Positions 871-14,167 of a DNA stretch of 14,167 nt are shown piece by piece; position 1 is the first letter of the stretch; each line of letters starts with the position of its first letter. The translations under genes and the position numbers were made by a program. The stretch is taken from positions 685,278 through 699,444 of the forward strand of contig CP070648.1 of NCBI GenBank assembly GCA_020354555.1, given 5' to 3'. The notes beneath the pieces were generated by a model. The model saw only the letters and a list, made by a program, of their open reading frames with translations, did not search any database and was not told the DNA's origin. The DNA comes from Armatimonadota bacterium. Its GTDB lineage: Bacteria > Armatimonadota > Hebobacteria > GCA-020354555 > CP070648.

Positions 871-2415
871 CTAGAGACCCGGCGCCGCCCCGGTCTCCGG
901 GGGAGCAATCGGTTCGGCGGGGGCGGGTTGTGCTGTCTCCGTCTCCTCCGCCGCTTCGCCGCCGGGCTGGGCGAAGAACCGCCATTGTCTCGTGGTCTCG
1001 TTCCCTCTCTGGTCGCGAGCCGTCACGCTCAGGGCGTGCCAGCCCGATTTGAGAGGCGCGAAGGCGCTCTGGTCGTCAATCGTGTAGGTGTAGTGACCAC
1101 TGTAGGGGTCATACTCGGCCTCGACCGGCGCGTCGTCGAGCGACATCGCAAGATCGGCAAGATCGAGCCCGCTCTGCTCGTCGAAGACCTGCGCGCCGAC
1201 CAGTTTGGGCAGGGTGATGCCGGTGACCATGTTCTCTCGCGGGGTCAGTAGGCGAATCGTCGGCGGGGAGATGTCCGGCCAGTTAGCGTCGAACCTGGCA
1301 AGGTTGCCGTCGTCCCAGACGAGGTAGAGCGAGCCGTTGCTATAGACCGCGGGGGCGGCCAAGTCGAAATCGGCCTTGGTGCCGGCGGCGAGGCCAGGTG
1401 GCCGCGCCAGATAGCGCCAGCGCGGCAGGCCGGTGGCGGCATCGAGCGCGTACACCATGCCACCGACGGCGCCGACGATGACGACGTCACCGACGACGGT
1501 CGGCGGCGTGGACATGAGCGTGTTGAAGGGGAACTCCCACAACGTCTTGCCCTTCTCGACGTCGAGGGCAAGCACGCGTCCGTCCACGAGGGAAATGTAG
1601 AGCCGGCCGTGTGCAACCGCCGGCGCGCCGGTGAGGAATGTGTTGAAGTCTACGGCCCATCTCTCCGTGCCGCGCCGGTTAAGCGCGGTGACATCGGATC
1701 GGCCGGCGACGTAGAGCGCGTCGTCGGTGACGACAACGGGATGAATCAGGGCCTTTCGGCGCGGCATGGTGATCTGCCGTCGAATCTTGCCGTCATCCGT
1801 GTCCAACGCAAAGAGTTGAGCATCCGCGGTGGGCACGAAGACGAAGCCGCCCGAGACCGCGGGGGCACCCCATAGCTCGTCGGTGAGCTGGGTTGACCAG
1901 CGGCGCGCGCCGGTGGCAGCGTCAATCGCCATGGCTCGGCGGTCGAGGGAGGTAGCGTAGACAACGCCGTCCACGACGACGGGGGCCGCGCGGATAGCCC
2001 GCGCGGCGGTTACCGCCCAGATCTCCTTGCCATCATCCGCGTTGAGGCAGACGACCTTGGTGTTATCGGCGCCGAGGAATACGCGACCGTCGGCGAAAGC
2101 CGGCGCGGCGAGGATGGTGTCACCGGCGTCATAGCTCCAGAGCCCGGCCCCGGTGGCCACGTCCAAGCAGTAGACGTAAGACCCGGCGGCGCAGAACACG
2201 CGGTCGGCGGTCACGGCGGGGGGCACACGCTGGCTGGATGCGGCCGTGGTGAACTTCCACACCAGGCTCAAGGGTGTCGCGAAGGCCTCCGCAGTGGCGT
2301 TGCGGCGCTCGGGCCCGTTGCGGTAGGCCAGCCAGTCGGCACCAAATGCGGGCAGCGTAACCGTCACCGCCACAGCCACGGCCAGCACGAGCACGAGCGA
2401 ACCCTTCGCGCGCAT
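871..2415 (-). CDS. Secreted PQQ-like beta-propeller repeat protein (BamB-like fold) with a C-terminal beta-sandwich and a Pro/Ala/Glu-rich tail
   Basis: Sec signal peptide MRAKGSLVLVLAVAVAVTVTLPAFG|ADW. Repeated [VL]Y[AC]LD..TG...W-type blades (VYCLDVATGAGLW, VVCLNADDGKEIW, AMAIDAATGARRW, LFALDTDDGKIRR, VLALDVEKGKTLW, VYALDAATGLPRW). Strong RBS GGAGG with a 6-nt spacer before the ATG at 2415. Confidence 0.85.
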   Translation of the reverse strand: MRAKGSLVLVLAVAVAVTVTLPAFGADWLAYRNGPERRNATAEAFATPLSLVWKFTTAASSQRVPPAVTADRVFCAAGSYVYCLDVATGAGLWSYDAGDTILAAPAFADGRVFLGADNTKVVCLNADDGKEIWAVTAARAIRAAPVVVDGVVYATSLDRRAMAIDAATGARRWSTQLTDELWGAPAVSGGFVFVPTADAQLFALDTDDGKIRRQITMPRRKALIHPVVVTDDALYVAGRSDVTALNRRGTERWAVDFNTFLTGAPAVAHGRLYISLVDGRVLALDVEKGKTLWEFPFNTLMSTPPTVVGDVVIVGAVGGMVYALDAATGLPRWRYLARPPGLAAGTKADFDLAAPAVYSNGSLYLVWDDGNLARFDANWPDISPPTIRLLTPRENMVTGITLPKLVGAQVFDEQSGLDLADLAMSLDDAPVEAEYDPYSGHYTYTIDDQSAFAPLKSGWHALSVTARDQRGNETTRQWRFFAQPGGEAAEETETAQPAPAEPIAPPETGAAPGL

Positions 2416-2660: not shown

Positions 2661-3698
2661 TCACGGCGTTAACGTCGGCACTGGAATCCCTAGCTGGAGC
2701 GTCTCGGCGTAGCCGGCGACAATGGCCATGACGCAGATGATGGCGATGATGATCATCCCGTCGCGGGTGAGATTGGCAGGTGTCTCCCGGCGTGAAAGGG
2801 CCAGTGCCGCCCAGGCGCCGGCGGCCGCGGCGGCGAAGCCGCGAAGGACCCAGTGGACATCTTCCACGGCGTCCCCCCAAGCATCGAAGGTGATGAGCTG
2901 TACGTAACCGGTCAGTATCTGGAACGCCGCAGCCGCGCCAACGACCGACGCCGCGATCCACACGCCGCGTCGAGCTGCGAGCGCCATCCATGCTGCGGCG
3001 AGGAAGAGGGGCAGAACCGACGCGACCCTACCCGCCATGGCGAGGAGACGCCCTTCGGTATCGGGGAACGCTCTGTACGCGAACAAGACGGTCTGCGCCA
3101 GCGCCATTCCTGTTACCGAGGTCGCGCACCACGCGAGCGCACCGATGGTGACGAGGCTCAATGGCACGCGACGGAAGATGCGGGGTGACAAAGCGCCGCC
3201 GAGACCTCCGCCGGCCAGAACGACCGCGATCTGGACAACCGCCAGCGCGCCGATGTGGAACCGATAATGGAAGAGGGCGGTATCTCCGGAAGACAGCGGC
3301 GCCGCCCAATAGGTGTGGGCAAGCCAGAGAACGCACATCGCCGGCGCCACGACAGCGATCACGCCTGGGCCGACGAGCCACTTCCATCGCTTCACGGCCG
3401 CGCCAGCCAGCGCGCCCACGGCCAGCGCGATCAGCGCGTTGCCGATAATGCTATCAATGTGAAACGGGGGCACCCGAACGGGGAAGCGCGGAGCCGGGGG
3501 GCCACTGTAGGTCACAAGGAAGAAGCTCGGGACGACGGACAGCCACAAGCCCGCGAGTGCGGCCGCCGTGACAAGGAGTAGGATCCGGCCTCCCCGGGTG
3601 GGCGGACCTTCGTCGAGTAGAGCGAAGACCGGCGTGCAACGCGGCGGCGCAGGCCGCTCGACACGGGCACACTGCTGATCCGACCCCTCGCGGCTCAT
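2661..3698 (-). CDS. Polytopic integral membrane protein of unknown family (about 9 predicted TM helices)
   Basis: A long run of hydrophobic helices follows a roughly 40-aa polar N-terminal segment. The start is ambiguous: GTG at 3722, ATG at 3707, or ATG at 3698. A G-rich stretch lies about 10 nt upstream of the 3698 ATG. No family-defining motif was recognised. Confidence 0.55.
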   Translation of the reverse strand: MSREGSDQQCARVERPAPPRCTPVFALLDEGPPTRGGRILLLVTAAALAGLWLSVVPSFFLVTYSGPPAPRFPVRVPPFHIDSIIGNALIALAVGALAGAAVKRWKWLVGPGVIAVVAPAMCVLWLAHTYWAAPLSSGDTALFHYRFHIGALAVVQIAVVLAGGGLGGALSPRIFRRVPLSLVTIGALAWCATSVTGMALAQTVLFAYRAFPDTEGRLLAMAGRVASVLPLFLAAAWMALAARRGVWIAASVVGAAAAFQILTGYVQLITFDAWGDAVEDVHWVLRGFAAAAAGAWAALALSRRETPANLTRDGMIIIAIICVMAIVAGYAETLQLGIPVPTLTP

Positions 3699-3763
3699 GG
3701 TCTGCATACCCCCCGAGGCCACGCTGTCGCTCGCCTCTCAGCCGATCACCGGACGCTGTCCTC

Positions 3764-3793
3764 GGGGGCGCGCGAGGAGCCTCGCACGCCCCC
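3764..3793 (-). terminator. GC-rich hairpin 26 nt downstream of the secreted-protein stop (13-bp stem with 1 mismatch, 4-nt loop, no U-tract)
   Basis: gggggcgcgcgagg-(gagc loop region)-cctcgcacgccccc. Pairing runs 3764-3776 with 3781-3793, with one C/A mismatch. It lies immediately after the stop codon at 3819-3821 on the minus strand. Confidence 0.35.
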
Positions 3794-3818
3794 ACGATTC
3801 ACTTCGTCAAATAGGTCG

Positions 3819-5885
3819 CTACTGCATGCGGCGCAAGGTCTCGCGGCGGATCATGGCGCCGGTCTGCAAGTTGCGCAGCTCGACGCCAACATCGCGGAGC
3901 TGCGCCCAGTTGGTGGGGGCGAGCACCGCGCCGGTTTGGGCGGTGAGCGTCTGCGCGGGAAGCTGCAGCGACCCCACTGTGCCGGCCTGGAAGTTGCGTA
4001 TCTCGATCTCGTAACGCAGGGGCGAACCCGAGCGGTTCTCGACGTTGACGCCGCTGCGGTCGGCCTTGGGCTCGAACAGCACGCCGCGTGCGGCGTCGAG
4101 GAGCTTGATGTCGATGACGCGCTGCTGACGGGGGCCGACGCGCATGATGGTGCGCACCTGAGCCGGGATGTCCTGGGCGAGGAGCAGCGAAGTCTGGTTC
4201 GTCACCAACTTGTCGAGCGTGATGCCAGCCTGGTCGGCGTCAGACGCGACTTCGAAGACGAGGCCGGGGGTGAAGGCGCGCATTCTCCTGCCGCGCGCAT
4301 TGGCGAGCTGGACGTTGAGTTTCTTGTTGCGCGCGCGGCCAAAGACGTAGACATTCGGGAAGTCGGGAGCGGGCGTGATGCCTGTGTCGGGTACGAAGAG
4401 CCCGGCATACGGGATGCGGGTCTTGGAGTCAGTGTTGATGCGGTCGCCGACGTAGAGCCTGCGGCCGGCTTCATCGCTGATCTGGGTTACGCGCGCGGGT
4501 TTGTCCACGACGACGACGGCCATCATCGCGGCCTCGCCTTCCGTCGCTTCGGTCGGCAGGTGCGGGTCGGCGGGCGTGACATCGGCGTAACTGCGGCAGA
4601 TCGTTCTCGTGGCAGAGCCCCAGGTGAGGTCGTCGGTTGTCTTGTTGATGCGCACGACTCTCGTGGTGTCTGACGCTTCGTCCTCGGCATAGGGGACGTT
4701 GTTGTCATAGATGCGGATGCGGCGCTCGTTGCCGACCTCCTCGGTCTGATACGGCCACACGCAGTGCCCCCAGCCGGGGCCGTAAATGCTGAGGAGCGGG
4801 GCGTTCTTGGAGCCGAGTTGGCCGATGAGGTCGCGGCAGCGCTCCCAGGCCTCGTTATGGTCCTGGTTGTCGAGCAGCCACTGGCGGTTGGCCATGACGC
4901 TGGCTTCGAGCTGGGCGCCCTGGTGCTCGTTGACGCTGCGGTGGACTTCGTTGACGAAGTCGTAATTCCAAGCGCGGGGCAGCCGGTGGCTGTTCCACCA
5001 TGATTCGAAAAGCGACCACGGCTGCCAGAAGAGGAAGCGCTCGGCGGACAGGGTCATGCCGAAGCAGTTCCCGCCGGAGCCGACGCGCTTGTAGGTGCTG
5101 TCATACCAAGCCTGGGCAGCCGGGAGGTGGTTGCCGCCAGCGTCCTCGACTTCATTGGCGCCGAAGTAATGGCGGAAGCACTCCCAGGGTATAGTCGCCT
5201 CGCTGAAGTTGGCGAACTTCCAGCCGTGGAGGCCGCGCCAGCCGCGGGGAGCGACGACGCGGTAGTTCAGATGATTGCCGGTGCGATCGGCGGCCGTATC
5301 CTTGAGGTACAGGTCGTAGTCGTGGGCGATGGAGACGCTCGGTATCTCACAGCCGACGCACTCGCCAAAGTCTTCGCCCCACGGCATATAGTACGTGGTG
5401 CGGGCGCTGCCGTTGAACCACACCTGGCAAGTGCTGTTCACTTCGATCCCATAGATGAGGAGCCAACTGCCGGGCGCACCGTCGCCGCTGTCGGGCCAGA
5501 CGTCGGTGATGTGCGGAGGCTTGATCTCGAAGCGCGGGCGGGTCAGGATGTCCTTGCTGAAGCGCATGCTCGCCACGCCGAGTTGGCTGGCGATGCCGGG
5601 ATCGCGGCTTGCCACGACTGCCTGCTGCATGCCCGCGGGGAGTTGGGCGAAGGCGGTGACGACTCTCTGCTTCTGCGCGGTTGACCAGCTCTGCTTCGCC
5701 ACCATGGCCTGGAGGCTCTTCTGCAGGCTGGCCGTGGACAGCTTGACGATTTTCGCGGTCGGGACTGCGCTGACCTTCGGGGCGACCTTGACTTTGGGCG
5801 CTGCGACCTGGGCTTGGGCCGTAACGAGTGACAGCACCAAGGCGAGGCCGACGAGGATGCTGAGGGGAACGCTAACCTTTCGCAT
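3819..5885 (-). CDS. Secreted 689-aa protein of unknown function (Sec signal peptide; central Trp/Cys-rich domain with a possible Cys-His-Asp/Asn core; C-terminal beta-rich region)
   Basis: The true start is the ATG at 5885 (MRKVSVPLSILVGLALVLSLVTAQA|QV, a classic signal peptide). It is preceded by RBS AAAGGAGA with a 7-nt spacer. The 234-aa Arg-rich extension in the 923-aa track ORF overlaps the upstream aldolase gene in another frame and is spurious. Motifs: GSGGNCFGMT, GWGHCVWPY, IRIYDNNVPY. Confidence 0.75.
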   Translation of the reverse strand: MRKVSVPLSILVGLALVLSLVTAQAQVAAPKVKVAPKVSAVPTAKIVKLSTASLQKSLQAMVAKQSWSTAQKQRVVTAFAQLPAGMQQAVVASRDPGIASQLGVASMRFSKDILTRPRFEIKPPHITDVWPDSGDGAPGSWLLIYGIEVNSTCQVWFNGSARTTYYMPWGEDFGECVGCEIPSVSIAHDYDLYLKDTAADRTGNHLNYRVVAPRGWRGLHGWKFANFSEATIPWECFRHYFGANEVEDAGGNHLPAAQAWYDSTYKRVGSGGNCFGMTLSAERFLFWQPWSLFESWWNSHRLPRAWNYDFVNEVHRSVNEHQGAQLEASVMANRQWLLDNQDHNEAWERCRDLIGQLGSKNAPLLSIYGPGWGHCVWPYQTEEVGNERRIRIYDNNVPYAEDEASDTTRVVRINKTTDDLTWGSATRTICRSYADVTPADPHLPTEATEGEAAMMAVVVVDKPARVTQISDEAGRRLYVGDRINTDSKTRIPYAGLFVPDTGITPAPDFPNVYVFGRARNKKLNVQLANARGRRMRAFTPGLVFEVASDADQAGITLDKLVTNQTSLLLAQDIPAQVRTIMRVGPRQQRVIDIKLLDAARGVLFEPKADRSGVNVENRSGSPLRYEIEIRNFQAGTVGSLQLPAQTLTAQTGAVLAPTNWAQLRDVGVELRNLQTGAMIRRETLRRMQ

Positions 5886-6034
5886 CGGACTTTCTCCTTT
5901 GCTGTGACGATGCGCCATGGGTACGCTAGCGGAGCGTATTGTACGTGCGGGCCTCGATATCCTGCCGGGGGGGCGTATTTTCGCGGACAGCTGCCCGTCT
6001 CCGCGAATGGTTGGCGGGTGAGACGCCTGCCCTG

Positions 6035-7087
6035 CTACTGCTTGATGAGCGCCTTGGCCTCGTCGGACATCCATGCGTACTTGTGCCACCACGGCTGGCT
6101 GGTCGCGACGGTGAGGTCTTGGATGAGCTTCATGCGCGGCACGGCAACCGCGGCGAGCGCCGCTTCGAGAGCCTTCCAGTCCGTGACCCCGGGATCGGCG
6201 AACGGGTCCTTGAAGTACGCGCGGCCGCACATGGGCCCGGCGACGAGGTCGCAGACGATGCCGTACTGCGCGGCGTACTGCGGAAAGTCCACTGCCGCGC
6301 TGAGCACGAGCAGCGGGCGATCGACGACTGCCGCCATGGCCTCGGTTGTTTTGCGCACGACCTCGGGGCTGCTGATGCGCGCGAGCTTGCCGTTGTCGTC
6401 GGCCCAGAGCATGGGCACCTGCGTCTTGTAAAAGTCGCCGTAGGGGCCGAAGTCGCGGGCGATTTTGACGAGCGCCTCGGGGAGCCGCTCGCCGATCTCG
6501 CGCTTGGACATGTCGGCGGGGGTGTAGAGGGTCTCGTTGAAGAGCGGCTTGCCGAGCTTGCGGGAGCGCTCCCAGACGCCCGTCAGCCATTCCAGGTTCC
6601 GCTCCCAGGACTCGCGGTGGGCGGGGTCCACCTTGACCAGGGTCTTGAAACCGTCCACGCGGTCGGCGACTTCCTCGGGCTGAGCGGCGAGCTGAGGGAT
6701 CTGGCCTTTGCCGTCTTTCGTGGTCAGGAACTTCGTGTCCTCGAGCCTGCCGATGAGCATAGTGTCGGCGCCGAGGAGGGCGCGGAATCCCTCGGACATG
6801 TAGGCGAGGCTGTTGAACAGCGCCGCGGCCGGGACGCCGCCGAGGACCTTGGCGAACAAACGGGAGACCTCGGTGACGTGATCGTCGGTCGCCTTGTCAG
6901 GGAAGTCCTTCTCGCTGCCGCCGGCGGCGCGGGCGGTCTGGAAGAACCGGGTGAGCAGGCGCAGCACCGAGCTGTGCTGGTCGCAGGCCAAGACATCTAT
7001 CACGCCGTTGGGGGCAAACTTCGCGAGGGTGCTGAACACCTCACGGCTGACCTCGACGCCGTCGGCGAACTCTGCGCATACCGGCAT
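6035..7087 (-). CDS. Class I aldolase of the LacD/tagatose-1,6-bisphosphate aldolase family (aldolase-type TIM barrel), 351 aa
   Basis: The true start is the ATG at 7087, with a very strong RBS GAAGGAGGG and an 8-nt spacer. The 43-aa upstream extension in the track is spurious. Motifs align with LacD. GVIDVLACDQHSS corresponds to ISALAFDQRGA. FKTLVKVDP corresponds to DVLKVEVP, which holds the Schiff-base Lys. LVLSAAVDF corresponds to IYLSAGV. GPMCGRAYF corresponds to GVLCGRATW. Confidence 0.75.
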   Translation of the reverse strand: MPVCAEFADGVEVSREVFSTLAKFAPNGVIDVLACDQHSSVLRLLTRFFQTARAAGGSEKDFPDKATDDHVTEVSRLFAKVLGGVPAAALFNSLAYMSEGFRALLGADTMLIGRLEDTKFLTTKDGKGQIPQLAAQPEEVADRVDGFKTLVKVDPAHRESWERNLEWLTGVWERSRKLGKPLFNETLYTPADMSKREIGERLPEALVKIARDFGPYGDFYKTQVPMLWADDNGKLARISSPEVVRKTTEAMAAVVDRPLLVLSAAVDFPQYAAQYGIVCDLVAGPMCGRAYFKDPFADPGVTDWKALEAALAAVAVPRMKLIQDLTVATSQPWWHKYAWMSDEAKALIKQ

Positions 7088-7104
7088 AGCTTGTCCCTCC
7101 TTCA

Positions 7105-7130
7105 GTGCGCCGTGGAGTGGTTCGGCGCAC
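7105..7130. promoter_or_regulatory. Perfect 8-bp inverted repeat GTGCGCCG-N10-CGGCGCAC immediately upstream of the aldolase RBS (candidate operator or 5'-leader hairpin)
   Basis: Positions 7105-7112 pair exactly with 7123-7130. The repeat sits 5-17 nt upstream of the SD on the aldolase mRNA, inside the 300-bp divergent intergenic region 7088-7387. Confidence 0.3.
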
Positions 7131-7387
7131 GACTCACACGCGGATGCAAACGCATTGGCCGTATGAGATGTCGTTTTCGCCGGGTCTGGGGCGGCTCCTG
7201 CGCTACCCGCGCACAAGCCCGGAACCGCCGTTGGGATGCCAGGATGTTCGCGGCCCGGCGGGGAAAGGGGTAAGCCAACGAGCGCTGGGGCGCCGTGGGC
7301 GCGCCGGGACAGGCAGCGGACCGGTACCGGCGGAGGGAAGGCTCGGCGCCCGGCAGCAAGTCACGCCCCACGCTGAGGAGGACACGG

Positions 7388-8131
7388 ATGATCCTGATAC
7401 CCCTGGGCATCGTAGTGCTGTATCTCATTTCCGGCATACGTCTCCTGTACCAGTACGAGCGCGGCGTGGTGTTCACCCTCGGCGTGTACAAATCCACGCG
7501 CGAGCCGGGCTTGCGGTTCATCTGGCCGATCTTCCAGACCATGCGCAAGGTTGACATCCGGATCAAGACCGCCGACATTCCGCGACAGGAGGTCATGACC
7601 AAGGACAACATCCCAGTGCTTGCGAACACGGTGGTGTATTTCAAGGTGGTCAAGCCGGAGGACGCGATCATCAAGATCGAGGACTACGTGTTCGCGGTAC
7701 GCCAGTACACGCAGGCGGCGCTGCGGGACGTGGTGGGCAACCACGAGCTGGACTTCGTGCTCAGCGAGCGAGAGCAGATCGGCGGGGCCATCGGCGAGAT
7801 GGTGGAACAGGAGACGGCCGACTGGGGGGTGGCGATCGAGTCGATCAAGATACAGGAAATCGAGTTGCCCGCCGAGATGAAGCGGGCCATGGCCAAGCAG
7901 GCCGAGGCGGAGCGCGAGAGGCGGGCGGTGATCATCGCGTCCGAGGGTGAGCTGAGCGCGTCGGTCAATCTGCAGCAGGCGGCGTCGAACCTGTCCAAGG
8001 CCGAGGGTGCGCTGCATCTGCGGACGCTGCAGACCCTGCGCGACATCGCCGCCGATCCGTCGGAGAAGATCATTGCCTTCCTGCCCTCCGAGGCGATCGG
8101 CGTGGCGCGGCGACTCGCATCCGGGGAATGA
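7388..8131 (+). CDS. SPFH/band-7 domain membrane protein (stomatin/prohibitin-like, QmcA/YbbK type)
   Basis: N-terminal TM MILIPLGIVVLYLISGI is followed by a typical SPFH core (ERGVVFTLGVY..., IRIKTADIPRQEVMTKDNIPVLANTVVYFKVVKPEDAI, ALRDVVGNHELDFVLSEREQI) and a coiled-coil Ala/Glu/Arg-rich segment (AEMKRAMAKQAEAERERRAVIIASEGE). RBS GAGGAGG with a 6-nt spacer. The start is the ATG at 7388, not 7295. Confidence 0.9.
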   Translation: MILIPLGIVVLYLISGIRLLYQYERGVVFTLGVYKSTREPGLRFIWPIFQTMRKVDIRIKTADIPRQEVMTKDNIPVLANTVVYFKVVKPEDAIIKIEDYVFAVRQYTQAALRDVVGNHELDFVLSEREQIGGAIGEMVEQETADWGVAIESIKIQEIELPAEMKRAMAKQAEAERERRAVIIASEGELSASVNLQQAASNLSKAEGALHLRTLQTLRDIAADPSEKIIAFLPSEAIGVARRLASGE

Positions 8132-8137
8132 AAGATT

Positions 8138-8803
8138 ATGCTCGACCGCCGCGTACGATACCTGCAACTTGCGTTCAATGAGGACGTCGCCGAGGCCGCG
8201 CGGATTGTGCCGACGCTGCCGCAGGACGAGCGCATTCTGCTGGAGGCGGGGACGCCGTACGTCAAACGGGAGGGCCTGGCGGGGATAGGCAAGATCCGGT
8301 CGCTGTGGCCGGGCGGCCTGGTAGCCGATATCAAGACGACGGATGGCGGGGTGGAGGAAGTCGAGCTGGTGGCGGGGGTCGGGGCGACTGCGGCGACGGT
8401 GATGGGGAGCTGCCCGACCGAGACGCTGGACCGGTTCATCGCCGCCTGCCACGAGTGGGGGATTGACTCGTTGGTGGACATGCTGGGGGTAACCGATCCG
8501 CTGCACGTGCTGCGCCACCTGCGGAGGCCGCCGGCGGGAGTGGTGCTCCACCTGGGGCGCGACGAGGAGAGCACCCGCGGCAAGGTCATCCAGTACCGGC
8601 ACGTCACCCGCATCCGCAGCAAGTATGACGTTGCGATTTCCGCGGCAGGTGGGGTCGGCCTCAAGGAAGCCCGCACGGCGATTTTCAACGGCGCCAACAT
8701 CGTGGTCGCAAACATCGTGGCCACGGGCAAGCCGTGGAACGGCATCCCCGCGGAGGGCGACGTGGCAGGCCTGGCCCGTCAGTTTCTGGCGACGATAGAA
8801 TGA
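8138..8803 (+). CDS. OMP-decarboxylase-suprafamily TIM-barrel protein, 3-hexulose-6-phosphate synthase / 3-keto-L-gulonate-6-P decarboxylase (HPS/KGPDC)-like
   Basis: Starts 6 nt after the SPFH stop. Motifs match KGPDC/HPS. LQLAFNED corresponds to LQVALD on beta1. ILLEAGTP corresponds to IIEVGT (metal Glu). LVADIKTTDGG corresponds to the D-x-K-x-x-D motif. VVLHLGRDEE corresponds to VYHRSRD (His). SAAGGVGLKEARTAIFNGANIVVA corresponds to the C-terminal phosphate-binding GG loop. The conserved beta1 Asp appears to be Asn. Confidence 0.75.
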   Translation: MLDRRVRYLQLAFNEDVAEAARIVPTLPQDERILLEAGTPYVKREGLAGIGKIRSLWPGGLVADIKTTDGGVEEVELVAGVGATAATVMGSCPTETLDRFIAACHEWGIDSLVDMLGVTDPLHVLRHLRRPPAGVVLHLGRDEESTRGKVIQYRHVTRIRSKYDVAISAAGGVGLKEARTAIFNGANIVVANIVATGKPWNGIPAEGDVAGLARQFLATIE

Positions 8804-8986
8804 GGCGGCGGAACGCAGGCAGAGGTCGGCCCGCCTGCCTCGTGCCGGTCTCACGGCCCCCTAGCCACTGCACAAAGTGCCGGATCCCTGGCCGGAGTCG
8901 ATTCATCCCGCTGATCTGTCGCACCGGGAGAGGCATTGGCCCCGCGTGCCCCGGAATCCGGAGCTGCACCCTCGGGTGACGGGGCG

Positions 8987-8995
8987 TGTTATAAT
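8987..8995 (+). promoter_or_regulatory. Possible extended -10 promoter element TGtTATAAT
   Basis: A perfect TATAAT (8990-8995) preceded by TGn lies in an otherwise GC-rich intergenic region, about 60 nt upstream of the ATG at 9057. No convincing -35 is present. Confidence 0.3.
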
Positions 8996-9056
8996 GCGCC
9001 TGCGGCCATGGCCAGCCGCACACCGTCTTCTCGCGAGATGCCGCGACAGGTCGCTT

Positions 9057-9434
9057 ATGGGCTACTTCGATCCGGGAATCGGCGGGCTCGGCGTGACTAG
9101 TCTATTCACGCTCGTGGGCATCGCGTTGATGACGGCTTTCTTCACGTGGCTGAGCGGGTACCGGGGGTGGATCGCGGAGATCACCTTCGGCAACGCCCTG
9201 TCGTTTGGCTTCCTGTACGCCATCACTTACTGGGTGATATGGTTCGCCCTGTCGTTTAGCGGCGCACGCCCCTTGATCGCCTGGATCGTCAGCATCATCA
9301 TGCTACTCCTGCTAATCAAGAGAAGCTTCGCCGCGACCTGGCGGCGCGCGCTCGTTACGTGGCTGGTAACGGTAGCCGGACTAGCCGCAACAGGCATCGT
9401 GCTTGGAATGACAGTCTTCACCCGCTCCCAATGA
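9057..9434 (+). CDS. Small (125 aa) 4-TM membrane protein of unknown function
   Basis: The sequence is hydrophobic throughout (MGYFDPGIGGLGVTSLFTLVGIALMTAFF...). The likely start is the ATG at 9057; the track's 8877 start is preceded by non-coding-looking sequence. Codon usage is atypical for this genome (cta, aga, aag, ttt). The SD is weak. Confidence 0.5.
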   Translation: MGYFDPGIGGLGVTSLFTLVGIALMTAFFTWLSGYRGWIAEITFGNALSFGFLYAITYWVIWFALSFSGARPLIAWIVSIIMLLLLIKRSFAATWRRALVTWLVTVAGLAATGIVLGMTVFTRSQ

Positions 9435-9537: not shown

Positions 9538-10374
9538 TTACCCGCTGCGCTTGAGCTTGCCGTGGCGCTTGCAGTAAGTCTCGGCGAGGCTGAAGACCCA
9601 CAGGCCGAGCGGAATCAACGCCACCGCCGTGACGATCAACGGCAGGATATCTCCCCACAGCTCGCGCATGCCGGCCCCATCGAGGATCGCCGCGCGCATG
9701 CCGTGCAGCGTGTAGGTTATCGGCGAGAACTGAGAGAAGAAGCGCAACCAGCCCGGCAGCACGTCAATCGGGTAGTACACGCCGCTGACCATGAGCAAGG
9801 CGGCCTCGAAGATGTTCGTCATCTGAGTGCCCTTTTCGGTGTAGATGAGGGGGAGCGCGGCGGCGGCCAGACCGAGCCCGACCAGCGACAACGTGGCGAT
9901 GGCGAGCACGGCGCATGCGCCGACGAGGTTGGCCGAGGCGAGGTCGATGTCAAACATGAGCGCGCACACGGCAGTCAGAATGACCAGCCTCCCGCCGGCG
10001 TAGCAGACCGAGAATGCAGTCATCCCGAACAGGTGCGTCGCGCGGGAGACGGGCGCCATGAAGGTGTGCTCGATGGTGCCCTCCCACCTCTCATAGGAGA
10101 TGACATTGCTCGTCTCCCAGAACAGCTCCGAGAGATAGCGCCACAGCAGCGAACCGGTCAACAGGTAGATCAGCACCTTGCCCACCGGCACGTCGGCGCC
10201 GCTGACCTGCCCAACGCCGACGGCGAGGAAGCCGATGGAGAGGACGATGGCGCTGGAGTAGATGAGCCAGCTCACTTCCCACGGCCAGTAGCGCTTCATC
10301 AGGGCGAAGCTGCGCCCGAGGAAGGCGTAGAACGGCCGCGCCTTGAGGCGGACCGTCATGGCTATTGCTTGCAT
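9538..10374 (-). CDS. ABC-2 type transporter permease
   Basis: Six-TM ABC-2 architecture with the typical N-terminal cytoplasmic helix (FYAFLGRSFALMKRYWPWEVSW) and a conserved C-terminal portion. RBS AAGGAG. It lies 54 bp downstream of the ATPase gene on the same strand, so the two form an operon. Confidence 0.85.
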   Translation of the reverse strand: MQAIAMTVRLKARPFYAFLGRSFALMKRYWPWEVSWLIYSSAIVLSIGFLAVGVGQVSGADVPVGKVLIYLLTGSLLWRYLSELFWETSNVISYERWEGTIEHTFMAPVSRATHLFGMTAFSVCYAGGRLVILTAVCALMFDIDLASANLVGACAVLAIATLSLVGLGLAAAALPLIYTEKGTQMTNIFEAALLMVSGVYYPIDVLPGWLRFFSQFSPITYTLHGMRAAILDGAGMRELWGDILPLIVTAVALIPLGLWVFSLAETYCKRHGKLKRSG

Positions 10375-10428: not shown

Positions 10429-11262
10429 CTATCCGCGGTTTCCGTTATCTCGCGCTTCGAGCGACTTGCCGGTGAGCTCGATGAACACGTCCTCGAGAGT
10501 CGGCGCGGGGCGGTCGTCGCTGCGCACGCGGGCCTTGAGTTCGTCGGGCGTGCCTTCCGCGACGATCTTGCCGTCGGCCATGATTCCCACGCGGTGACAC
10601 AGGCGGTCCGCCTCCTCCATATCGTGGGTGGTAAACAGCATGGTTGCGTCGTGATCCCGTAGGACCGAGCGCAGGAAGCCATGCACGTCGCGTTTGGACT
10701 GCGGGTCGAGCCCGGTCGTCGGCTCGTCGAGGAGCAGCAAGACGGGCGAGGTGAACAGGCCGCGGGTGATCGCCACCTTCTGCTGCTGTCCGCGCGACAG
10801 GTTCTCAACGGAATCGTGGATGCGGTCGATGGGGAAGCCCATCACCTCAAGCATCGCTGTCGCCGTCTTCGCCGCCTCGCGGGGGTCCATGCCGTAGAGG
10901 CGCGCGGCGTAGAGCAAGTTCTCTATCGCCGAGAGTTTCTTGAAGAATGATGCTTCGACTGAGACGCGGTTGACGAGCTTGCGCACCGCGGCAGCCTCGC
11001 GCACCACGTCACGGCCGAACACGCTGGCGGCGCCCGCGTCGGGAAGCAGAAGTGTCGCGACAATGCGGACGAGCGTGGACTTGCCGGAACCGTTGGGCCC
11101 GAGCAGGCCGTAGATCTCGCCGCGGCGCACCTGCAGACTGACGGATGACAGTGCGGTGATCGTGCGCCACTTCTTCCCGTCGCCGTCGCCTTGCGCGCGA
11201 CCACGTTTCTGTCTGAATGACTTGGTGACGCCTTGCAGCGTCAACGGCAATGCTTCATGCAT
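10429..11262 (-). CDS. ABC transporter ATP-binding protein
   Basis: Walker [11 protein letters not shown]-loop, ABC signature LSRGQQQKV, Walker B LLLLDEP, and H-loop TTHDM. RBS GGAGG with a 9-nt spacer before the ATG at 11262. Confidence 0.9.
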
Positions 11263-11577: not shown

Positions 11578-14167
11578 TCAAGATCCAAACCGAGGCGGCA
11601 ACGCGATTTCGACCAGAACAGTATCCACGTCGCGGTCGGCACCGACGGCGAGGATGGCTCCGGCTTCGTCGACGGCGACGCCGGCGCCGCCGTAAGTGCG
11701 GCCGGTCCACGGGCCGTGCGCAATCTGGCCGACCAGATCCACGCCGACGACGGGCGCGCCGATCGCGGTTGCGGCGGCGGCGACGGTATCGTGCAGCCGC
11801 TGGTGATGCTGCGGCCAGGCCTCTTCCCGTTCCGCCCACCCGTAGGGGACGATGACGAGCTGCGGCCGGCATCGGCGCATGGCGCCAAGGATGTCCTCGC
11901 GAAAGGTATCGGCGCAGATGAGCATCCCGATGCGGCCGAGGCGGGTCTCGACGGCGGCGATATCCTCGATGATCCCCTTGCTGTAGGGCGGTTCCATGAG
12001 CCAGTCCAAAGTGTTGATCTTGCGATGCTTGAGGAGCAGTGTGCCGTCGGAGTCGATGAGCGCGGCCGCGTCGTAGAGCTTGTCGCCGTCTTTCTCCGCG
12101 AGGCCGATGGCGAGCATCAGGCCGTACTCACGGGCGAGCGCACCGAGGCGCTCCGTGTCCTCGCCGGGGATGGCGTGTCCGCGCTTGTGCGCCTCGGGGT
12201 TGACCCAGCCGAGCAGAGACATCTCGGGGAAGCACGCGATATCGGCCCGTTGCTCGCGCGCGCGGGCGAGGGCGCGCTCGATGCGGGCGTAGTTGCCGCT
12301 CTTGTCGCCGTCGAGGCAGAGGATCTGACACATCGCCGCACGCAGGGTCATTGCTGTCTCGCGTCCAGGGGTCGTTGACTCGGTTTTCCCGCGGGCGAGG
12401 TATGGTTCCTGCCGCGCCGCGAATTGCCCACGCACGCTTCCGTCCGCGCCACGGATGACCGCCGCCGCCTCGCCCGGGAAGTCTTTCTGGTCGAGGCGGA
12501 GGGCGCCTTCCCGATCGGCGAAGGCGACGGTAACGATCTCGTCGCCGCGGTGCAGCCGTACGCCGGGGCATCGGCCCGGCAGGGCCTCGACTTCCACTAC
12601 TGCCGACGGCTCGCCTTCCCGCGCCACGGCGATGACGGTGATGAAGTCCGCGGTGCGAGCAGGCTCTGCGGTTTCGACGGTGAGATGCCATTCGGGCACG
12701 GTCTTGCCGGTCTCGGGTTCGAGCGGATAGCGGTCGGTCTGGGTGAAGCGGACTTTGGCCGGCGCGACGAAGCTGATGCGCGCCCGGGCATTGCCGTGCC
12801 GCAGCAGCACGGTGTTGTCGCGCTCGGATATCTCAAACGGGGAGCGCCCGTGCGCCAGCCACTGCACGGCAACCGGTTCGTCCGCGACCACGCGATCGTG
12901 GATGACGAAGACATCCGGGCGCACGAACATGATGCGGCGCGCGACCTCCCGCGCGTTGTCGTAGGCGGCGCCCGCATCGCCGGAGGTGTATGTGAAGCGC
13001 CCGTCGTGCCGGAAGGCAGTGATATTGCCCACCGCATTCGCGCTGCGCGACTGGCCTTCGCCGTTGACGAGGATGCAGTTGTGACTGAGCGTCGCCCAGT
13101 AGTACTGGCGGCAGAACTCGCTGCCGTACCACGGGCGGATGCCCGTGTTGACGAGCAGCGGTTCCCCATAGGCAGCAAGGACGATAGCATTCTGGTCGGC
13201 GTGGGCGTGGCTGATGTTGCCCATCGCACTGCTGCGGAACATGAGCTGGACGTCATCATCCGGATTGGCGAGATCGGTGTGCATCGCGACCCAGCCGGTG
13301 CCGCGGAAGAGCCTGGCGGTGGGCAAGTCGTCCGGCGACTTGGCCTCCGCCGGCGGTCGGGCGGCGCGCAGGAAGCCGATGGGCGTGTCCTCGTGTTCTG
13401 CCGCACCCCACGCTTCCGCGTACCACTTCCAGTACGGGTTGCCCACGGCATCGGCGAAGTAGTTGACGACTCGGCCCGCGCTGGACGGGGCGCCGCGCTC
13501 CCCGTAGTCGCCAAAGCCGCTGATCGGCGAACGCGGAGCGGCGCAATACAATGGGAAGTCGCCGACCTTGCTGAAGAACGGCTTCCGCGTGCCGTCAATG
13601 CCGGTCGCGACGTTGAGCGCGTCGAGCCACCACGTGACGCGGTTGATGTAGCTGTTCCAGTAGGCGATCCCCTCGGACCATCCGCCGTCGCTATCGGACC
13701 AGATGGGGTACCAGCCCCAGAAGATGGCGATGGCGTACTCGAGCCAGCGATCGGCCTCTTCGATCTCGTCGTGGTACGCGATCGCCGCCTCGCCGAGGAA
13801 GTGCCACATGCGGCCGCCGTGGCTGTCGTAGGCGCGCTGCTCGTAGGGGCGCCCGTGGAGTCGCCGGTAGGCCTCCTCGCCGCGGGCGCGAATCATGTCG
13901 CGCAGGACGCGGCGGTCGTCGTCGCTCAGCGCGTCGTGGATCCAGTCGTAGGCGCGCGAGGTGATATGGAGAATCGGCATGCCCGCCTCGTCGTTGACCT
14001 TGATGCTCGTGCTGCCCGCAGGATCCCACGACGCGATATGCAGCAACCACTCGCGAACGCGCTGCGCGTACTTCTTCTCGCCGCTGATGAGGTAGGCAAA
14101 CGCCATCGTCTCGATCCCGTTACACGCCTTGACCACTGCGCCGTAGTTGCGTCGCCACTCCGCGGCA
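11578..14167 (-). CDS. Bifunctional-looking fusion of an N-terminal heparinase II/III-like domain and a C-terminal carbon-nitrogen hydrolase (nitrilase-superfamily) domain; the 5' end runs past the window edge
   Basis: One uninterrupted minus-strand frame. The N-terminal part contains DGGWSEGIAYWNSY and the Hepar_II_III hallmark SSAMGNISHAHADQNAIVLAAYGEPLLVNTG (compare GHGHADALSFEL..GEPLLVDSG). The C-terminal 257 aa have the CN-hydrolase Glu-Lys-Cys triad context: MCQILCLDGD...ACFPEMSL (Glu), TLLLKHRKINT (Lys), GMLICADTF (Cys). The track's GTG 'start' at 14136 is not preceded by a stop, and the frame stays open to 14167, so the true N-terminus is outside the window. Confidence 0.8.
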   Translation of the reverse strand, partial: AAEWRRNYGAVVKACNGIETMAFAYLISGEKKYAQRVREWLLHIASWDPAGSTSIKVNDEAGMPILHITSRAYDWIHDALSDDDRRVLRDMIRARGEEAYRRLHGRPYEQRAYDSHGGRMWHFLGEAAIAYHDEIEEADRWLEYAIAIFWGWYPIWSDSDGGWSEGIAYWNSYINRVTWWLDALNVATGIDGTRKPFFSKVGDFPLYCAAPRSPISGFGDYGERGAPSSAGRVVNYFADAVGNPYWKWYAEAWGAAEHEDTPIGFLRAARPPAEAKSPDDLPTARLFRGTGWVAMHTDLANPDDDVQLMFRSSAMGNISHAHADQNAIVLAAYGEPLLVNTGIRPWYGSEFCRQYYWATLSHNCILVNGEGQSRSANAVGNITAFRHDGRFTYTSGDAGAAYDNAREVARRIMFVRPDVFVIHDRVVADEPVAVQWLAHGRSPFEISERDNTVLLRHGNARARISFVAPAKVRFTQTDRYPLEPETGKTVPEWHLTVETAEPARTADFITVIAVAREGEPSAVVEVEALPGRCPGVRLHRGDEIVTVAFADREGALRLDQKDFPGEAAAVIRGADGSVRGQFAARQEPYLARGKTESTTPGRETAMTLRAAMCQILCLDGDKSGNYARIERALARAREQRADIACFPEMSLLGWVNPEAHKRGHAIPGEDTERLGALAREYGLMLAIGLAEKDGDKLYDAAALIDSDGTLLLKHRKINTLDWLMEPPYSKGIIEDIAAVETRLGRIGMLICADTFREDILGAMRRCRPQLVIVPYGWAEREEAWPQHHQRLHDTVAAAATAIGAPVVGVDLVGQIAHGPWTGRTYGGAGVAVDEAGAILAVGADRDVDTVLVEIALPPRFGS

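Follow-up and report, generated by a model that had tools for sequence, protein, structure and literature searches.

The 14,167-nt stretch of DNA analysed here (the window, positions 685,278 to 699,444 of contig CP070648.1 of an Armatimonadota bacterium, forward strand) contains, at 3819..5885 on the minus strand, a gene whose 688-residue product very probably carries a papain-fold enzyme of MEROPS clan CA, with a Cys-His-Asp triad, in residues 211–455. It is probable, with moderate confidence, that this enzyme is a peptidase, and a similarly measured confidence applies to the complete description, that of an exported papain-fold thiol hydrolase acting as a peptidase. The protein belongs to no named family: it is an unstudied candidate for a new Pfam/MEROPS family whose fold and chemistry are well known. 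A first-pass annotation, made from the sequence alone, had spoken of a papain/transglutaminase-like thiol enzyme; the papain-type fold and the triad have held up, and the choice between peptidase, transglutaminase and amidase leans towards peptidase.

The predicted catalytic residues lie in three short motifs, GNCFGMT, GHCVWPY and IYDNN, which the first-pass annotation had picked out with approximate spacings of 100 and 20 residues. The motifs are where they were said to be (Table 1), and the spacings are indeed 100 residues from Cys274 to His374 and 20 residues from His374 to Asp394. The conservation of the three residues, set beforehand as a test of the proposal, was examined in the catalytic segments of 112 cluster representatives, using a hidden Markov model (HMM) of residues 205–455; 61 of these representatives are distant (<150 bits). 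Cys274, the predicted nucleophile, and His374, the predicted general base, are both invariant (112/112). Asp394 is kept in 109 sequences and replaced by Asn in the other three. Other positions are conserved to a similar extent: Gly276 (111/112), Gly272 (108/112), Asn396 (106/112) and Trp234 (101/112), as well as Asn226, which belongs to a G-[WYF]-x-F-x-N-[FWY] motif and is present in 106 of the 107 sequences that have no gap at this position. Residue 395 varies in the wider family (N, P or S). The earlier proposal that the Asp or the Asn of I-Y-D-N-N completes the triad is therefore retained for Asp394 but not for Asn395, the conserved pair being Asp394 and Asn396. Besides the Asn226 motif, the family signature consists of G-G-N-C-[FY]-G-M-S, G-H-[AT]-V-[VI]-P-Y and [YW]-D-x-N-x-P-Y.

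A full-length structural model, obtained with AlphaFold2 from an alignment of 24 sequences, has a predicted local distance difference test score (pLDDT) of 86.2 and a predicted template modelling score (pTM) of 0.80; the model of the domain reaches 86.1 and 0.85, respectively. In both, the helical lobe comes first and the beta lobe second. Helix 274–285 has Cys274 as its N-terminal residue, His374 lies within strand 372–384, and Asp394 immediately follows strand 387–393, which is the next strand after that of the histidine. This predicted placement is the papain arrangement. The two-lobe alpha+beta fold, the cysteine at the N-terminus of a helix of the helical lobe, the order Cys...His...Asn/Asp and the position of His and Asp on or beside successive strands of the beta lobe are all features of clan CA. 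We infer the three-dimensional geometry of the triad from these models.

The structural neighbours are (scores in brackets) streptopain (7.0), Alr0975 (7.0), interpain A (6.4), a C39-like effector of a type VI secretion system (T6SS; 6.3), staphopain C (6.0), IdeS (6.0), PeiR (5.9), ZUFSP (5.9), the C39 domain of PCAT1 (5.8), the GP42 transglutaminase (5.7), C0362 (T-Mac, 5.5) and AvrPphB (5.4). Among the top neighbours, cysteine endopeptidases secreted by bacteria predominate, and the two weak sequence links described below are both to peptidases, which makes a peptidase the most likely type of enzyme. A confident match to a non-catalytic fold had been named beforehand as a result that would speak against an enzyme; the structural comparisons did not overturn the catalytic reading.

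Searches with sequences and profiles assigned no named family, in agreement with the first-pass annotation. Pfam-A (2025) and NCBIfam (2026) give no family match for the catalytic region of the protein, Pfam gives none for that of all 24 homologues at E values up to 1, and Pfam or NCBIfam scans of 24 distant full-length relatives assigned that region to no family either. The models of the C47, C10, C39/C39_2 and C1 (papain) peptidases have no match at E up to 1 in the protein and 23 close homologues. Neither the protein nor the 24-sequence profile retrieved anything usable from the PDB sequences. The homologues that are named in their source are all called 'hypothetical protein', except for one generic 'PKD repeat protein', and no paper in the library searched connects Armatimonadota with cysteine peptidases.

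The first of the two weak links comes from a profile that was built from 27 diverse catalytic domains and run against PDB sequences. It has one relevant match, staphopain C (8oig_A), with an E value of 0.034 and about 10% identity. In this alignment Cys274, His374 and Asp394 fall on Cys23, His119 and Asn140 of staphopain C, Asn396 falls on Trp142 and Val268 on Gln17. In staphopain C, Cys23 is the nucleophile, His119 is the general base, Asn140 orients the histidine, Trp142 shields the His–Asn bond and Gln17 forms the oxyanion hole (PMC10254297). The same broad profile, used in a word-indexed search, gave four matches and no annotated relative. The second link is that of a distant member of the family, which scores 23.3 bits on PF13529 (Peptidase_C39_2), for a cutoff of 24, within the homologous region; in the 27 catalytic-domain sequences, PF13529 has one marginal match (E 0.073).

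The staphopains (MEROPS C47; 8oig) are also secreted bacterial papain-fold enzymes, and they are made with a classical prodomain. Staphopain C is the only relevant PDB sequence matched by the family profile, with the three catalytic residues in register, and it shares with the Armatimonadota protein a cysteine that stands in a G-x-C-x-G context at the start of a helix, a histidine on a strand in a G-H-A motif, and an Asn/Asp about 20 residues further on. The differences are the Asp in place of Asn140, Asn396 in place of the shielding Trp142 and Val268 in place of the oxyanion Gln17, a much larger helical lobe (about 140 residues), the lack of a Pfam C47 match, and the presence of TIG and Ig-like domains, whereas mature staphopain C in 8oig is a single domain of 173 residues. 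Streptopain and interpain (MEROPS C10; 4d8b, 3bba) are likewise secreted bacterial cysteine endopeptidases, and the C10 members of Bacteroidota often have extra C-terminal domains. With 5–11% identity, no Pfam C10 match and a different context of the Cys motif, the likeness to C10 is one of fold only.

The C39-like domains (PF03412/PF13529; PCAT1, ComA and the Bta-type T6SS effector 9jdd) have a similar order and spacing of Cys, His and Asp, with about 80–100 residues from Cys to His and 16–20 from His to Asp. However, C39 domains have a Gln six residues before the Cys, and they are usually cytoplasmic N-terminal domains of ATP-binding cassette (ABC) exporters, which process double-glycine leaders and are not Sec-exported. 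IdeS/Mac-1/T-Mac (MEROPS C66; 8a47, 9arc, 9mdo) is the top Foldseek match of the full model (E 6e-4), but the superposition of IdeS/T-Mac is poor (global TM of 0.13–0.19) and there is no sequence similarity. Like the protein described here, TDE0362 is secreted, and its Ig-like domains precede the protease. IdeS has an Asp-x-Asp at the position of the third residue, comparable to D-x-N (PMC11833123). The active site of IdeS includes a Lys located ten residues ahead of the Cys, to which no conserved Lys corresponds in the new family.

Several observations weigh against a clan CA peptidase at the cell surface or beyond. The family lacks the canonical oxyanion Gln (or Asn), whose usual place is about six residues ahead of the cysteine: the residue at −6 is Val268, in a column occupied by V, A, I, C or L in the family. 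Asn226 is a candidate oxyanion-hole or active-site residue which may substitute for it. The staphopain C match is not significant when taken alone. The fold neighbours include a transglutaminase, isopeptidases, amidases and a phytochelatin-synthase-like enzyme; since they cover several chemistries, the peptidase is a plurality reading only. When the open reading frames (ORFs) of 48 loci were compared all against all, no partner proved to be conserved outside a single subclade, so that the neighbourhood does not indicate a substrate. Last, an outer membrane is attributed to many Armatimonadota and, if the host has one, Sec export by itself may take the protein no further than the periplasm.

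If the enzyme works as a papain-like peptidase, the protein would be exported by the Sec system and its signal peptide would be cut after Ala25. Cys274, from the helical lobe, and His374, from the beta lobe, would then form a thiolate–imidazolium pair, with Asp394 orienting the histidine. Attack of the thiolate on an amide carbonyl would produce an acyl-enzyme, to be resolved by water. The likeliest activity would be that of an endopeptidase whose targets are proteins or peptides in the periplasm, at the surface or outside the cell. The IPT/TIG domain, like the Ig-like sandwiches of the C-terminus, could serve as a spacer or as a substrate-binding module.

Transglutaminase, isopeptidase, amidase and gamma-glutamyl transpeptidase chemistries also occur on this fold and must be weighed. 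An amidase or acyl-transferase of the papain/NlpC-CHAP type with a non-proteolytic reaction (a cell-wall or isopeptide amidase, a gamma-glutamyl transpeptidase similar to phytochelatin synthase, or an esterase of decorated polysaccharides) is unlikely. The missing oxyanion Gln suggests a non-standard active site, which would suit such an enzyme, as would the PA14 or dockerin fusions of distant members and the heparinase II/III-like gene found near the gene and in the loci of two close homologues. Yet no LysM, SH3b or PG_binding domain occurs in any architecture examined, the NlpC/P60, CHAP and Phytochelatin models of Pfam have no match, and the heparinase proximity, seen only among close relatives (63–68% identity), may be residual synteny.

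A transglutaminase-type enzyme, in which the acyl-enzyme would be resolved by a lysine or another amine and would cross-link surface or matrix proteins, is less likely still. Transglutaminases also have Asp as the third residue of their triad, and a secreted, multi-domain protein with Ig-like modules would be a suitable setting. However, Asp at this position is also common in clan CA peptidases, C39 and AvrPphB among them. IdeS has one as well (PMC11833123). The transglutaminase-core model (PF01841) does not match the protein, and it and the related Pfam models have no match in 23 close homologues and 46 distant sequences either (19 full-length, 27 catalytic domains). Moreover, peptidase structures (streptopain, interpain, staphopain, IdeS and C39) score higher, and the links at the sequence level are to peptidases only. 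As for a surface or adhesin protein whose papain-like domain is a degenerate binding module, the Ig-like and TIG domains do make up about half of the protein, but pseudo-enzymes typically lose their catalytic residues, whereas Cys274 and His374 are invariant, and Asp394 nearly so, in 112 divergent representatives, which is the signature of a working site, so that a non-catalytic role is hardly credible.

The protein is one of a widespread family. A word-indexed search found 24 full-length homologues of 674–729 residues, with 26–68% identity. When 1.84 billion cluster representatives were searched exhaustively with a profile, 2,439 matched at E values up to 1e-3, many of which are TIG-repeat proteins that align only at residues 112–210 or so; the catalytic region is matched by about 110 of the 150 best-scoring representatives. 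At least about 110 distinct clusters at 50% identity, from metagenomes, carry the catalytic and Ig module. According to the profile, the conserved core consists of the catalytic domain and the C-terminal beta region (profile positions about 217–673), and the latter accompanies the catalytic domain across the wider family. The helices at the N-terminus and the TIG domain, on the other hand, characterize only the subfamily of the protein. Among GTDB species representatives, this subfamily is almost confined to Armatimonadota (Armatimonadia, 'Zipacnadia'), the outliers being one locus in Polyangiales and one in candidate division WS1. Several metagenome-assembled genomes of Armatimonadota have two paralogues on different contigs (five pairs of loci).

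Free-standing forms of about 520 residues exist, and the four that were read all have a signal peptide. Distant members are fused to a subtilase with a sorting domain of the type IX secretion system (T9SS), to PA14, dockerin or RodZ_C domains, to LGFP repeats, or to CarboxypepD_reg, VWA, BNR/sortilin or Big_1 domains. The subtilase with T9SS domain, PA14, dockerin, LGFP, VWA, Big_1 and CarboxypepD_reg partners are surface or extracellular contexts. A bolder proposal is that the protein is the founding example of a new clan CA family spread over many uncultured phyla, with a core of about 460 residues that unites a papain fold and obligatory Ig-like sandwiches, an Asn about 48 residues upstream of the nucleophile as the oxyanion donor in place of the Gln at −6, and a non-proteolytic reaction (isopeptide or cross-link chemistry, or deacylation of extracellular polymers); taken as a whole, this is doubtful.

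What is gained is that a 'hypothetical protein' becomes a testable enzyme with named predicted catalytic residues, Cys274, His374 and Asp394. The catalytic and Ig module is widespread beyond this genome and is covered by no Pfam or NCBIfam model; the definition of a family would improve the annotation of secreted proteomes in Armatimonadota and other poorly cultured phyla, and would add to clan CA a lineage devoid of the canonical oxyanion Gln. No concept is overturned, as papain-fold thiol hydrolases are very well known and new families are regularly found.

The coordinates of the gene signals, domains and motifs are collected in Table 1.

Table 1. Features of the gene and of its product (positions in the window; the codons of single residues and the start codon are written in the direction of reading).
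Feature	Residues	Nucleotides	Strand	Remarks
Ribosome-binding site AAAGGAG		5894..5900	-	8 nt 5' of the ATG; read from the sequence
TACAAT, -10-like hexamer		5938..5943	-	no matching -35; weak evidence only
Start codon ATG	1	5885..5883	-	
Sec-type signal peptide	1-25	5811..5885	-	MRK, hydrophobic core, AQA before the cut, Q after it
Ala/Pro/Lys/Val low-complexity linker	26-47	5745..5810	-	predicted disordered, pLDDT below 50
N-terminal helical region	51-102	5580..5735	-	four helices; specific to the Armatimonadota-type subfamily
IPT/TIG-like beta-sandwich	about 122-210	5256..5522	-	
Papain-fold catalytic domain (predicted)	211-455	4521..5255	-	helical lobe 215-353, then beta lobe 363-432
Asn226	226	5210..5208	-	in G-[WYF]-x-F-x-N-[FWY]; candidate substitute for the oxyanion Gln
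GNCFGMT	272-278	5066..5064	-	codon of Cys274, predicted nucleophile
GHCVWPY	373-379	4766..4764	-	codon of His374, predicted general base
IYDNN	392-396	4706..4704	-	codon of Asp394; Asp394-Asn395-Asn396 at 4698..4706
C-terminal all-beta region	456-688	3822..4520	-	Ig/FN3-like sandwiches
GC-rich hairpin		3763..3794	-	14-bp stem, 4-nt loop; begins 25 nt past the stop

The N-terminus shows a type I Sec signal according to rule-based criteria: a positive n-region (MRK), an h-region in the form of an 18-residue hydrophobic core (Kyte-Doolittle mean up to 2.95), an A-x-A motif in TAQA/QV (the slash marks the cut), and no lipobox, residues 1–50 being devoid of Cys. The same n-h-c layout is common to all 24 homologues, which agrees with the 'clear signal peptide' noticed at first. 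A lipoprotein or a membrane anchor was considered and rejected, as the protein lacks both a lipobox Cys and a further hydrophobic segment. The first-pass annotation also called the protein extracellular; Sec export stands, but the sequence speaks for export only, and the final location is inferred to be periplasmic, surface or extracellular.

Helices 51–102 could possibly be a prodomain. In the IPT/TIG-like domain, the sequence of the protein itself has no score with the Pfam TIG model (PF01833), and eight of the 24 homologues match it weakly (best E 0.0046). The central region had been described as Trp/Cys-rich, and residues 211–455 do contain 14 Trp (5.7%) and 5 Cys. The C-terminal beta region has a conserved turn, I-x-D-E-x-G-R, at 469–475.

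The gene consists of 688 sense codons and a TAG stop in an uninterrupted frame; the first-pass annotation was right about the gene, a complete ORF, but its length of 689 residues counted the stop. The frame is open up to 6590, upstream of the ATG, and this extension is Arg/Pro-rich, off-frame and overlaps the upstream gene; the equivalent Met is the start in 24 of 24 homologues. The protein is identical to an NCBI deposit, 'MAG: hypothetical protein JSV65_02795 [Armatimonadota bacterium]', and its homologues have E values from 0 to 1e-43, so the ORF is not due to chance. The ribosome-binding site, the gap of 149 bp to the upstream same-strand ORF (which ends at 6035) and the GC hairpin that follows the gene are all as first described. 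The TACAAT hexamer is present too, but it stands alone: a promoter scan found no two-hexamer sigma-70-like promoter in the 149-bp gap.

The 86-nt region which includes the hairpin has a fold energy of −41.7 kcal/mol (z = −2.74). The hairpin was rejected as an established terminator, because it is not followed by a U-tract and was not picked up by the terminator scan; it is possibly a terminator or an RNA-stability element. Past the hairpin, 96 bp downstream of the gene and on the same strand, lies a gene for a predicted polytopic membrane protein of 353 residues (2661..3722, minus strand); another one, of 185 residues, is at 8877..9434 on the plus strand, and neither belongs to a Pfam or NCBIfam family.

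The upstream ORF (6035..7216, minus strand) had been taken for a LacD-family aldolase. It does match the NCBIfam tagatose-1,6-bisphosphate aldolase (PRK12858) over its full length, but with 61.6 bits for a cutoff of 184, and it has no Pfam match. By its sequence, it would be a LacD-like protein, very divergent and uncertain in function, and its true start is likely a Met that lies inside the ORF, about 43 codons from the beginning. An operon link between this gene and the peptidase candidate, or with any conserved partner, was rejected after five homologue loci were examined individually. Their neighbours are unrelated, so the adjacency of the aldolase-like gene carries no functional weight. 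Across the 48 loci, the synteny within subclades involves alcohol dehydrogenase, HAD hydrolase, a LuxR-type regulator and prepilin-like proteins.

At three loci, the gene of the family has a heparinase II/III-like gene within 1–6 kb: in the window (11578..14136), in L046 (2190..5042) and in L047 (7459..10224). L046 and L047 are the loci of the homologues with 68% and 63% identity, and no heparinase was seen in the other annotated loci; this proximity may reflect residual synteny or a loose polysaccharide-degradation neighbourhood. In the window, the ORF (minus strand) encodes 852 residues that combine a DUF4962/heparinase II/III-like part (residues 6–500) and a carbon-nitrogen hydrolase of the nitrilase type (599–845). 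Its DUF4962 match begins at profile position 213, and the N-terminus looks truncated near the end of the window. In L047 the heparinase-like and nitrilase-type genes are separate and adjacent, with an overlap of 8 nt.

The window contains several further genes. At 871..2415 (minus strand) is a BamB/PQQ-type beta-propeller of 514 residues with a signal peptide, an extra C-terminal part of about 110 residues, a Pro/Ala/Glu-rich tail, and a weak SUKH-4 match near its N-terminus. On the plus strand, an SPFH/HflK-like band-7 gene (7295..8131) is followed after 6 nt by a gene (8138..8803) similar to 3-hexulose-6-phosphate synthase and orotidine monophosphate (OMP) decarboxylase; every NCBIfam match of this pair is below threshold, and the pairing is unusual. 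An ABC-2 type permease (9538..10374) and an ABC ATPase (10429..11262), both on the minus strand, form a DrrAB-like exporter pair; in L046, ABC-2 permease genes adjoin the heparinase-like gene.

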